Part shown: positions 39,378 through 44,251 of the stretch, in pieces
How positions within the stretch are numbered: the first letter of the stretch is position 1
Layout: each line of letters begins with the position of its first letter
Assembly: GCA_023920165.1 (NCBI GenBank)
Contig: CP089277.1
Coordinates: 2,666,001-2,730,000 of the forward strand
Direction of reading: 5' to 3'
Length of the DNA: 64,000 nt
Source: Curvularia clavata
Lineage: Eukaryota
Notes under the pieces: generated by a model
Seen by the model: only the letters and a program-made list of their open reading frames with translations
Told to the model about the DNA's origin: nothing
Database searches by the model: none
Position numbers and translations under genes: made by a program

Positions 39378-39755
39378 GGGAGGCTAGGGCAATGCGCCCG
39401 CGGGGTTCTGAATGCACACGGGGCTTCTGAGGCTGCCGGCATGTATCCTGATTGTCGTCTACCGGGCTTGAGCGACGACGAGTCGTTAGTGGCCGAATTC
39501 GCTTTCTGGTTGGCAGCGGCGCGTGTGACGACGTTGAGTTGAGTGACGCTGCATCGCCGTTGCGGCCGCTGCGCTTTCTGACTGGACGAAAGGCGGCATC
39601 TCCAGAAACCCTTGCATGTGTACCTCCACACAGCACGGCGACTCTCTGCACCCATTGCCAGCTTGTTTCTAATCCTCTTGTGCTGTTCCGCTCTTCTTGT
39701 CGCTCCTTACTGTGCTCGCAGGCCACGGACTATCCATCCATTCTGACTCACATGG

Positions 39756-42700
39756 ATGTCGCTGATAAGTCGAGCCTTCCGCATCGCTCCACCAACCTTT
39801 TCTCTGCTCTACAAACGTGACTTTTACCTATCACCTGCACGCCTTCCCTTTACAGGACACTCCACTCTCAGAGCTCTACATTTCCCTACCACTTCATCAC
39901 CTCGTATGTCCAGAGCAAGCCCCTCACCTGAACTGCAACCGCCGAGCCCAAAACGACGCAAAATCGGTGCGCCATCACCACAGTTCATTCAGCCTTACGG
40001 AGCCATGGCTTCTACAGGAGATACAAAGTCACCGCAGCTGGAGTTGACAGAGGTCGAATCCAAGCTACGACAGCTGCTACTTGACGTAGCCACCTACATT
40101 GACGAAACACCGTCAAATGGAGACGTTAGTGCCGTACAGGTACCACCCGAACTGGCCAAAGAAAAAATTGTCCTACGTTGGACAGGAGGGTGGGTGCGTG
40201 ACAAGCTGCTGAAAGTCGGCAGCCACGACATCGATGTGGCCATCAACAAGATGACCGGAGAGCACTTTGGCTTGAAGATGCAAGAGTACCTTGAGATTCC
40301 AGGAAACGCAGAAAAGCATGGTCTCATCGACAAGAGCGAAGGGCTGAGTGCTCGCGACAAGACAAAGAAGATTGCACCAGGTTTGCATAAGATTGAGGCG
40401 AACCCCGAAAAGTCAAAGAACTTGGAGACAGCTACGACAAAAATCATGGGCATTGACCTGGATCTTGTCAACCTCCGAAAAGAAACCTACAACGAAGTCT
40501 CTCGCAATCCCCAAATGGAGTTTGGCACAGCGGAAGAAGACGCCATGCGCCGTGATGCTACCGTAAATGCCATGTTCTTTAACCTGCATACCTGTCAAGT
40601 TGAAGATTTTACAGGGCGCGGGCATGATGACATGGCTGCTAAGATTATCCGAACGCCTCTGGAACCCTACCAGACATTCAAAGACGATCCACTGCGAGTA
40701 CTGCGATTAATTCGCTTTGCCAGCCGTCTAGATTACACCATTGAGCCTGAGACGGCAAAAGCCATGGGCAATCCGGAGATTCAAGACGTCTTAAAAATCA
40801 AAATCAGTCGAGAACGTGTCGGCATTGAGCTCGAGAAGATGCTAAAGGGCCCCAGGCCTCGGATGGCCCTGGAGCTCATCGACCGGTTCGGCCTGTATCG
40901 TACTGTCTTTACAGATCCCACACGAGAGTTACCCGCAGAGCCTGAAACGGGTTACTTCAAGCCAGCATATGAGGTAGTCGAGTCAGTAGTGACCAAAAGC
41001 GACGATGTACCTACTGTTGTCCCGGATACACTTCTGAGGAACGACGATGACAAGTACCTTGCCTGGATTTGCGCTACCATGATGCCATGGGCTGATGCGC
41101 CCACTGTTCCTCATCAGAAGCCCTTGCAGCGGCCGTACTTTGTTGGTTACCTTGTCGCCAGAGAGGGTTTCAAAGCCCCGAACAAGGTTTGCGACGTCAT
41201 TACTTCTTCACTGAGCAACGGTGAGGAGATCCGTAACCTTGTCGCTCAGTGCGTCAAGGGGCTCCGACGGCCTGACACTATCAATCCAAACAACAATCCC
41301 ACTGCCAGAGACACTCTGGGCATGGCTATCCGCCGTTGGGGATCTACTTGGCGGACGCAGGTTCTCTTCAACCTTGTTTATGAGATTGTGCTCGGACGGG
41401 TGTCAAAAACTGGTAGGTCACTCTATTTCAACTTTTCAATTTACATCTTGCTGACCAGAATCAGACCTGTTCCGCTCGTATGCCAGCTTCCTTAGCCGCG
41501 TCACCGAACTTGATCTCCTTGAGGTCGACACTTTCAGGCCACTTATCAAAGGAACTGATCTTGCCAAGGCTCTCAACACCAAACCTGGGCCATGGATGAA
41601 GGAGGCGCTGGATGTCGTCATGGCCTGGCAGTTGCGCAACCCCGACAACACTGATACGGCGGGCGCCATCAAGGCGGTCGAGGCTTCGAGAAGCGAACAG
41701 AACGAAAGTGAGCTTCCCCTTCGCCTGGCTTCACACTTTCTCCAGCTTACCATCCCACCTTTCTTTCCGCAGAATAAACCTACATCGAATGCATTGGAAG
41801 CATCGCGGCAACCAGCCCCATGGAAAGACGCCGGGAACCAGTACGTGCTCGACCTCTTGGCATGGTCGATTCGTGTGTTGGACAGGAAAACAGTGGAGGA
41901 CAAGTGGCGGTTTTTGATGCCTCCGGTCCTTAGGATGATGGACGACATCAATGTGGAATGGAAGGCAAAAGGCTGTCACATGCTCGGTCTGTTGCTGGAT
42001 GTTCTAAGGCAACCGCTCAGCACAGGTAGTTCACAAAAGGCTGCTGTGCAAAAGTCAACCCCCACAAGCTTCCTTCTGCGAAGTGGATATCACAACATTT
42101 TCGCGGAAGCCCTACTACCTATGTTCACCTACATTCCTTCGATTACACCGGAAAGGGAATCCGTGATTCTGTTTAGGGCGGTCTTCCCTGCCGTGATTTC
42201 GCTTGCCTTGCTCCTGCCCGAAGACAGCAGCAAAGGCGACAGTAAAGAGCTATTCTTAGACAGAGTCCTCCGAGAGGGTGTTCTGTCCCCTCTTGGACAT
42301 TTCACTACGCCCTCTATGTACCCTGAACTTGCTACGTTGATCATGTCACAGGTCCCTATTGTGGTGAACCACATGGGCATTGATACGGTCAAACATCTTC
42401 CAGACATTGTACCTCTGCTCTCAGCAATCCTACAGGAGCCATTTGCGCTCAGCCACCACAAACTAGTTGGTTCAGCTCTCGAGGCACTGCAGAGTGTGAT
42501 GCTTAACGCTTGGCCACGGATACCTGGTCACCGTGGTAGCATCATGATGGGCCTGTGCTTATTGTGGAGCCGGTGGTTAGAAGAAGAAAAGAAGTGTGGT
42601 AGCGAGCAAGTTGCACAAGTCAAGATGCAAGTCCAAGAAACGGTCGCGATGCTAGACGCCGTAATGCAGCGCGTGGACGAAGCGGGTATGGCGGAGACAT

Positions 42701-42804
42701 GGAAGACGGAAAAACAGGATTTGGTTGCAGCGGAGCCCGGATGTGAAGAAATGTTTGGTGGGTGTGCGGAGAATATGCCCTTGAACGAGACAGATGGTAG
42801 CTAG
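39756..42804 (+). CDS. CCA1: CCA tRNA nucleotidyltransferase fused in frame to a C-terminal Tti2-like helical domain (998 aa)
   Basis: Class II motifs GGWVRDKLL, DIDVA, DLVNLRKETY, EEDAMRRDATVNA, DDPLRVLRLIRFASR and ISRERVG.E. Intron 41413-41464 leads to the usual CCA tail KPGPWMKEALDVVMAWQLRNP. The frame then stays open about 365 more codons with a Tti2-like pattern. Confidence 0.88.
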
Positions 42805-44251
42805 AGGTGTCTGGCGGAAGCCCGGATCAAGACGAAAGAAAAATCGAGGTCCGCACGTGCATGGTTCGTGGGCACCACCAATGGGCAGCCCGGTCAGGTC
42901 GATGTGACAACATTGCTAGCTGCTTTTGCAATGGCAGGAGGTTGCAGGATGCAAAAGTTGGCAGTCATGGCAATGGCGTGCATCTGTCCAAGGTGGTTGC
43001 ATCACCAGACGAGGTCGAGCTTGGCAGTTGACGGCGGGGGTTTGTGGCGGTGCGGGGCGGCAGTGGGGGCTGGAAGCGCCAAGATATGGCACAGCAACAT
43101 CGATACGAGCGCTGAGTTGCGACATGCTTGGCTGTGTATTCTAGCTCGGAGCCCCTTCCCGAGTAAGCAGGCCAAAGTTATCCAGCTACCTCTATATATA
43201 TTTTGGCGCAGCACACGTGGGATCGTATCTGTAGGCGTGACGAAGCGCGAGGGTCGTGGCGGCGGGAGTGTGGCTGGTGGAGCGTGGCCGCACCAGCGGG
43301 CCGCCCACCCCACCCCTGACATGACGGCGTCTTGCTATTGGATGCTTGTGTCGACGGACGCGCGTCTTGTGTTGAATAAGACGGCATCCCGGACGAGCGT
43401 GATATCAGCATTACGCCTTTGGTTGGCGCATCCCGTAGTCCTGACAAGCTGCATATCCCGGCTCGAGCATGTCCTTCGTCCGAGCCTGACGGCGGCTTCA
43501 CTACGGTGACGACGTAGTGTAGTGGGTAGTGCTGCTACTGCGACGTTTCGACGGTTGCAGATGAAGGTCCATCTACCCTGGCGGAAATTTAACCCGCGCC
43601 ATGGGGTCTGGAAACTCGGGGCCAATGACAGAAAAGGGCGTTGGCGCATAGCTCCCCGTGTCTTTTAGTAAATATTATTGTAGTTATGGAACAGTGCACC
43701 TTGTGCCTCGCCAGTCAAAGGCTGTGTGCGTGCGTGGCGGTGCCTTGGGGGCGGCGGACTTGATGAGGCACGACGAGATGGTGTCGAGGCAGCGAGACAT
43801 GGGCTCTGCAACGGCGTATAGTCCCAAGAATAACAATAAAAGAAACACGGTGCTCCACGTCGAGCGCGCGTCTGCCGCATGCAGAGTCTCGACGTCAGGT
43901 CGACCAACGAGGCAACTCACCAAGCTTGGACCCAGCCTTGTCAAGCCGGTTACTGGATTGCGCCGGCGCCCACCCCCCTTGACATGGCATAGTGCCCTCA
44001 ATTCATCCCGCTGCGCCTACACCAATTCCTCCCGCACCTCCTTGTCCTCCTCCTCTGCTGCTGTCGCTGCCGCTGTCGCCGCTGCTGCTACCGCGACCTC
44101 ACATGTGCTCTGCGCCAGCTGCAACGACGCTCTACCCCGATCCTTTGCGGCATTCTTCGACGGTTCCTCCCGCGCAGCGAGGCAACCTGCCGCCAATCCT
44201 CTGAGTTCGCGCCGGGATTCAGTGCTCGGTATCGCGAACTGTTGTAAGACC

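Follow-up and report, generated by a model that had tools for sequence, protein, structure and literature searches.

In yeast, in-frame alternative start codons of CCA1, a class II tRNA nucleotidyltransferase, sort the enzyme to different compartments. Introns located inside protein-coding exons, named exitrons, were defined in plants as well as in humans (Marquez et al. 2015, as presented in the accessible part of PMC5602073). For fungi, the available excerpt of PMC3597508 describes the ancient and conserved alternative splicing of SKI7/HBS1, by which one gene yields two distinct proteins, and calls such diversification of the proteome rare in this group. Tti2, according to the accessible portion of PMC4889661, is a subunit of the Tel2-Tti1-Tti2 (TTT) complex. 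Here we analyze a 65-nucleotide (nt) element of the Curvularia clavata genome that lies at the joint between a tRNA CCA-adding enzyme and a Tti2-like domain encoded in one gene (assembly GCA_023920165.1, contig CP089277.1; the 64,000-nt stretch from 2,666,001 to 2,730,000 of the forward strand is called the window, and positions are counted from its first letter). Our results support the view that this element is a real GT-AG intron with deep conservation. It is likely a partly spliced coding intron, so that the spliced message gives the CCA enzyme alone and the message retaining the intron gives a CCA-Tti2 fusion.

The element was proposed from the letters of the window alone (the original prediction), and on recheck all its coordinates proved correct, including the donor, the branch-like GCTTAC, the acceptor, the resulting AAA TAA and the product of 634 amino acids (aa). 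The A at 41707 is a first codon position and is followed by the donor GTGAGC (41708-41713); GCTTAC at 41745-41750 contains the putative branch CTTAC (41746-41750), its A at 41749 lying 23 nt before the acceptor; a pyrimidine-rich run (41751-41769) leads to the acceptor CAG (41770-41772). Immediately downstream, AATAAA (41773-41778) overlaps a TAA (41775-41777), while a nearer CAG is found at 41743-41745. As 41708-41772 comprise 65 nt and 41707 is a first codon position, removal joins A to AA, giving AAA (K) and then TAA; with intron 1 also removed, the spliced product has 634 aa from the ATG at 39756 and 584 aa from the ATG at 39906. If kept, the 65 nt translate as SELPLRLASHFLQLTIPPFFPQ, in frame with the Tti2 domain. 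The pattern GTGAG..CTNAC..YAG with the same spacings occurs seven times in the window, compared to 8.7 +/- 3.9 in shuffled sequences. It is thus not above chance by itself, and the case rests on conservation in the DNA of relatives and on exact excision in their RNA-derived contigs.

One scan of metagenome contigs yielded 80 homologous loci, which together with the window form a set of 81 sequences. The 22-codon block is held by 77 of them, 64 of which are distinct; of the other four, two lack exactly the block (L021 and L073), one ends earlier and one falls outside the search pattern. In the numbering of the exon-2 reading frame (codon starts at 41461+3k), used below for all residues and codons, the 64 distinct sequences have fixed or nearly fixed codons wherever a splice signal is expected. 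Codon 83, the donor, is GGT in all 45 sequences with Gly and AGT in all 19 with Ser (background frequencies 0.24 and 0.13, respectively); codon 84 is always GAG (background 0.54), and codon 85 is always CTN. At the acceptor, codon 104 is AAG in 42 of the 44 sequences with Lys and CAG in all 18 with Gln; the AG stands at the homologous place in 60 sequences, and the remaining four have an in-phase AG at -3 or +6. The branch had been described as non-consensus and possibly due to chance: CTTAC does depart from CTRAC, but mere chance is at odds with codon 96 being CTT in 62 sequences (background 0.16) and CTG in the other two, giving CTTAC or CTGAC. At L89, H92, F93, L94, P100 and F102 the residues are conserved and the synonymous sites are freely variable. 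The element thus has the features of a U2-type intron, namely a GTRAGT-like 5' splice site (GTGAGCT in 64 of 64 distinct homologs), a motif of the yUnAy/CTRAY type 10-40 nt from the 3' splice site, predicted to serve as the branch, and YAG or AAG after a pyrimidine-rich run.

In 50 distinct exon-2 coding sequences, grouped into 29 clusters at 70% amino-acid identity, 54 conserved degenerate columns were compared by an unbiased codon scan. Residues 84, 96 and 97 rank at the top, the fractions of the most frequent codon being 1.00, 0.96 and 0.90; the next column has 0.73, and the median is 0.52. The ranking is the same with one sequence per cluster, and in the control columns elsewhere the synonymous sites are well mixed.

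A post-splice stop follows after 1-28 codons at all loci with predicted splicing except L079, where the contig ends first, and the third base of codon 105 is T, which creates an immediate stop, in 16 of 17 distinct Pleosporales-like sequences (hand count). None of the 77 homologous sequences has the frame interrupted at the joint. Conservation of the donor, the acceptor and the out-of-frame stop in orthologs had been suggested as a check of the proposal. The nearer CAG, offered by the original prediction as a second acceptor, was rejected: AG ends codon 95 in only 30 of the 64 sequences, and no contig uses this site.

The length and content of the post-splice tail vary. Twelve loci (L045, L054, L057 and L064-L072) have a post-splice frame of 26-28 codons with a basic end resembling a nuclear localization signal (..PPRKVRRG*), and two (L044 and L078) have the tail ..PAKVRK[CR]*. 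The conserved motif of the Tti2 frame may give rise to such a tail as a side effect, or selection may have acted on the tail in the CCA-only form. We do not claim dual coding for it, since the tail tracks the Tti2-frame motif VLPxRFVG and tails differ widely across lineages. In four long contigs of the genomic type (L031, L034, L037 and L048) no stop interrupts the frame over more than 600 codons upstream of the MAWQLR motif, so that intron 1 is absent from them or in frame, while the 65-nt intron is kept.

Excision was observed in RNA-derived contigs of relatives. L021 and L073 are contigs of mRNA size, 97-100% identical to the genomic-type loci L001-3 and L016-19, respectively. In both, the 65 nt are absent precisely from GT to AG, and so is intron 1 (47 and 50 nt); their reading frames stop one codon past the joint. 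A search with the exon-1 protein listed 120 homologs, and we examined the 114 new ones: 13 CCA homologs are continuous over exons 1 and 2 and end at the post-splice stop (the tail of P0284 is unclear), 96 are exon-1-only open reading frames (ORFs), two retain the block and three differ otherwise. The tails of P0287 and P0290 correspond to the 71-nt variant (+6 acceptor) predicted for L023/L026, and P0307 has a Botryosphaeriales-like tail that bears out the AAG acceptor predicted from DNA. NCBI gene models account for two of the 13 (P0240 from Coniothyrium glycines and P0246 from Ascochyta lentis); spliced forms are present in no fewer than 11 non-NCBI ORF clusters representing several lineages, with 18-45 member sequences in some of these clusters. 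These ORFs, ending where the DNA of relatives places the post-splice stop, agree with the proposal that removal of the 65 nt leads to a stand-alone CCA enzyme.

Retention is likewise represented by contigs. For C. clavata, a 3579-nt contig of run X5 covers 39600-43000 with intron 1 out and the 65 nt in, and a contig of X13, a run labelled as oligo-dT RNA, spans 41574-41770 and crosses the donor unspliced. Contigs of runs X1 and X9 also keep intron 1; they look like DNA or unspliced RNA and are uninformative about retention. P0006, a 908-aa ORF on a 3165-nt contig, corresponds to the gene of L007 without its 49-nt intron 1 and including the 65 nt. Like the X5 contig, P0006 bears out the expectation that the retained stretch leads into Tti2. 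Both the retained (X5, P0006) and the spliced forms (L021, L073 and others) are found within Pleosporales, in different species. The AATAAA was discarded as an early polyadenylation site: the spliced contigs of relatives continue 593 and 1102 nt beyond the joint, the X5 contig runs past 43000, and no contig stops at AATAAA.

The gene has the two parts of a class II CCA-adding enzyme, a nucleotidyltransferase head and an RNA-binding region. In exon 1, Pfam identifies the PolyA_pol head domain (PF01743, 77.2 bits, E 1.8e-21) and PolyA_pol_RNAbd (PF12627, 33.6 bits, E 3.4e-08); in exon 2, tRNA_NucTran2_2 is a weak match to the C-terminal part of the enzyme (24.8 bits, under the cut-off of 27). 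Profile comparison of this C-terminal part with solved chains gave cca1 (E 2.4e-08) and cca2 (E 5.9e-11), the match extending to 14 residues before their C-terminal end. The solved stand-alone cca2 ends 14 residues past the WQxxxPE motif, and the spliced product ends 20 residues past it. The Tti2 domain PF10521 matches exon-2 residues 68-330 with 202.8 bits (curated cut-off 25.2, E 1e-59), covering profile positions 25-278 of 279, and the profile aligns to the solved human TTI2 chains 7f4u_C, 9wjy_B and 7ole_J at residues ~196-443.

The retained 65 nt seem to belong to this second domain. In an alignment of 25 sequences down to 35% identity, E84, L85, L89, F93, L94, T97, P100 and F102 are invariant, and the linker before the block is variable and contains insertions. 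In an AlphaFold2 model (mean predicted local distance difference test score 80.5), residues 84-101 form a helix, the first of the Tti2 solenoid. Matches of a fold search span residues 82-442 and are all generic HEAT/ARM solenoids (importins, CRM1, mTOR and CAND1, Z 15-18); TTI2 was not among the 50 matches listed, and we used this result for the domain boundary at residue 82 only. The alignment and the model suggest that the retained stretch codes for a Tti2 helix under protein-level constraint. Stand-alone fungal Tti2 proteins (500-590 aa) carry the homologous block ..RPLFAK..GRK..KPWK after ~200 N-terminal residues, which places the intron signals on ancestral Tti2 coding sequence. The fused protein does not have the full stand-alone architecture, the CCA enzyme standing in place of the ~200-residue region, and, as judged from the sequences compared, this form appears to have lost the usual Tti2 N-terminal region.

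PF01743 and PF10521 occur together in 86 proteins of at least 784 aa, comprising P0001 and 85 others found by a search for long relatives. P0001, the public model of C. clavata (948 aa), is 100% identical to the window gene and reads through the 65 nt. By name, nearly all of the fused proteins are from Dothideomycetes, including Pleosporales, Mycosphaerellales/Capnodiales-type fungi, Venturia, Phyllosticta, Lasiodiplodia and Trypethelium. By a motif test, the 22-residue block is present in 78 of the 86 models, and most of the other eight are minor motif variants; in P0001 and these 78 models the element is, like an exitron, part of an annotated coding exon and is flanked by coding sequence at either end.

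Several public models deserve separate mention. P0085 and P0086, fused models named outside Dothideomycetes (Fusarium zealandicum and Candelina submexicana), differ at the block, the Candelina model having a related helix without the GEL start; these two may be genuine fusions or may result from the merging of gene models. For Ascochyta lentis there are two models, one fused (905 aa) and one CCA-only (552 aa; P0035/P0246), and in Coniothyrium glycines (P0240/P0176) and Plenodomus biglobosus (P0234/P0155) the locus is split into two models. A splice switch would account for such conflicting public annotations (fused, split and CCA-only).

Taken together, these observations point to the following scheme. 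A single gene conserved across Dothideomycetes would encode a class II tRNA CCA-adding enzyme fused in frame to an N-terminally shortened Tti2, the TTT co-chaperone subunit, with a U2-type GT-AG intron at the exact domain boundary that is spliced in only a part of the transcripts. Splicing would shift the frame and stop translation at once (AAA TAA), producing a CCA enzyme of 584 or 634 aa with its natural C-terminus and turning the Tti2 frame into a 3' untranslated region (UTR). Retention would give a CCA-Tti2 fusion of 948 or 998 aa, predicted to be the sole reading with an intact Tti2 domain; the claim that Tti2 is available only from the unspliced form fits the sequence. Some putative signals are slightly off consensus (C at donor position +6, CTTAC instead of CTRAC, AAG acceptors in most non-Pleosporales lineages), which is compatible with incomplete splicing, and in that case the extent of splicing would determine the proportions of the two products. 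From signals identical to those of the spliced relatives we infer that C. clavata itself also splices the 65 nt; presumably, both proteins accumulate and function, and the splice ratio matters or is regulated.

Several points weigh against this scheme. Excision was seen in the RNA of relatives (L021, L073 and the 13 ORFs) and not in the species of the window: neither the joint 41707^41773 nor 41707^41746, the split reads suggested for checking, was found in the contigs of the four C. clavata runs X1, X5, X9 and X13, where, since assembled contigs drop minor forms, absence is not proof. The one clearly spliced transcript contig of C. clavata, that of X5, retains the 65 nt. The two isoforms have never been seen in one and the same species. 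The raw codon counts overstate the number of independent events, because the sequences are related, which the subsample of 29 clusters tempers. The invariance of E84, L85, L96 and T97 may partly reflect the splice signals and not protein function. Finally, an assembled contig need not be one molecule, so that the retained form could stem from transcripts starting inside the gene.

The last point is the basis of the best surviving alternative, which we consider unlikely: the intron is real and Tti2 is free, full-length transcripts being mostly spliced to give CCA only, and transcripts with an internal start keeping the 65 nt and giving a Tti2 of ~400 aa from the ATG at 41596 (M46) or 41620 (M54). 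The ORF 41596-42804 indeed encodes 402 aa, both methionines are invariant in 25 fused-lineage sequences while the solved stand-alone cca2 has L and I there, and contigs neither reveal where transcripts start nor show that distant features share a molecule. However, M46 and M54 may owe their invariance to the conserved CCA motif in which they lie. Moreover, the X5 contig and that of P0006 are continuous from the 5' part of the CCA sequence across the retained 65 nt, and the frame is open over the joint in 77 sequences and in 86 gene models, something that a free-standing Tti2 would not call for.

It is very improbable that the intron is latent or dead in C. clavata, its inherited signals unused and the fusion the only protein. 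The contigs of the four runs, with retention in X5 and X13 and no spliced form, would agree with that. On the other hand, C. clavata shares the donor GTGAGCT, the branch CTTACC and the acceptor CCGCAG, with AATAA next to it, with relatives that have spliced RNA, contigs drop minor variants, and the immediate TAA is kept even in a strain variant. This variant, 41773 A>G, was seen in runs X1 and X5; it replaces N105 by D in the Tti2 frame, and in the spliced frame K becomes R.

In fungi, nonsense-mediated decay can be set off by long 3' UTRs, and ~1 kb of former coding sequence follows the post-splice stop. Having a 3' UTR longer than 1 kb, the spliced mRNA could thus be prone to decay and serve only to adjust how much fusion is made, and the fusion would supply all CCA activity. 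We find such unproductive splicing highly unlikely, as spliced forms are abundant enough to assemble in 11 or more non-NCBI ORF clusters, the C-terminus of the spliced product falls where that of stand-alone CCA enzymes does, and the T of codon 105 that makes the stop immediate is nearly invariant in the Pleosporales-like sequences. Chance likeness to splice signals in ordinary coding sequence, which the pattern count in the window would allow, is refuted by donor and branch synonymous sites fixed in 29 divergent clusters, by the exact GT..AG excision in contigs of two species and by the 13 ORFs ending at the post-splice stop.

If the 65 nt are indeed a partly spliced coding intron, one short intron with signal bases fixed class-wide would decide whether an essential tRNA-processing enzyme is made alone or carries a subunit of the chaperone responsible for maturing TOR-family kinases. 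The element would be a clean natural case of double constraint, by splice signal and by protein, and synonymous mutations of the donor would offer a simple genetic handle by which each product could be tested separately. A bolder extension, which we regard as quite unlikely, is that the splice ratio acts as a regulated valve coupling tRNA 3'-end maturation to the biogenesis of PIKK kinases (TOR, ATR/ATM), because Tti2 could be made only at the expense of the CCA-only message. In that case free Tti2 would be absent from Dothideomycetes, their TTT complex would have the CCA enzyme attached, and the 65 nt would be both an ancient, class-wide intron and the first helix of an essential co-chaperone subunit.

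Table 1. Features of the CCA-Tti2 gene in the window.
Feature	Position	Strand	Basis and remarks
Exon 1, CCA-adding enzyme gene	39756..41412	+	ORF, Pfam matches; P0001 100% identical; ends in phase 1
Intron 1	41413..41464	+	52 nt, GT..AG, branch-like GCTGAC at 41450-41455; skipped in the X5 contig (cut +1)
Exon 2a, C-terminal part of the CCA enzyme	41465..41707	+	KPGPWMK..MAWQLRNP motif, last helix, variable linker
Alternative 65-nt intron, also coding	41708..41772	+	Exon-2 residues S83-Q104; signals, excision in relatives, retention in X5
Rest of the Tti2-like alpha-solenoid domain	41773..42801	+	Stop 42802-42804; read only if the 65 nt are kept
TAA stop of the spliced (CCA-only) frame	41775..41777	+	Out of frame when the 65 nt are retained

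The features of the gene are listed in Table 1. After intron 1 the frame of exon 2 is uninterrupted up to its stop at 42802-42804. Homologous introns 1 of 47-50 nt are missing from L021, L073 and P0006. Intron 1 of the window has two candidate CAG acceptors 6 nt apart, ending at 41458 and 41464, both of which keep the frame; the second is used by the X5 contig and by P0001. The first ATG of the gene is at 39756, and the second, in the same frame, at 39906 is the start in the public model P0001. The stretch 39756-39908 holds both, 50 codons apart; the 50 N-terminal residues added by the first are basic, include no acidic residue and resemble a mitochondrial presequence, and the X5 contig extends upstream of both ATGs. 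Together, the two start codons and the splice switch could lead to four forms of the protein.

The literature search found no paper on a CCA-Tti2 fusion or on such a splice switch, and no title on fungal exitrons was among the matches listed. The domain resembles Tti2 of the TTT complex in its PF10521 match, its profile alignment to human TTI2 and its alpha-solenoid fold; it differs from stand-alone fungal Tti2 in having the CCA enzyme instead of the N-terminal region. With yeast CCA1 the gene shares the enzyme family (PF01743, PF12627) and has two in-frame ATGs 50 codons apart, while the yeast gene has neither a Tti2 domain nor a C-terminal splice switch. Compared to exitrons, as far as the accessible part of their description goes, the element is similar in being an intron inside an annotated coding exon, in that the retained and the spliced mRNA would both be coding, in its rather weak splice sites, and in its apparent origin by intronization of ancestral coding sequence, stand-alone Tti2 having the homologous helix; in contrast, its 65 nt are not a multiple of three, so that splicing ends the protein instead of trimming it, and it lies at the joint of two unrelated essential functions. 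SKI7/HBS1, in the portion of the report available, is likewise a conserved fungal splice event giving two proteins from one gene, as we propose for CCA-Tti2. The products of SKI7/HBS1 are paralog-like and have a common domain, whereas those of CCA-Tti2 would be an enzyme alone and the same enzyme with an unrelated chaperone subunit, and the switch would operate by retention of a translated intron, with a frameshift. If this reading is correct, CCA-Tti2 would join the conserved alternative splicing events yielding two different functional proteins, which the same excerpt (PMC3597508) presents as rare in fungi.

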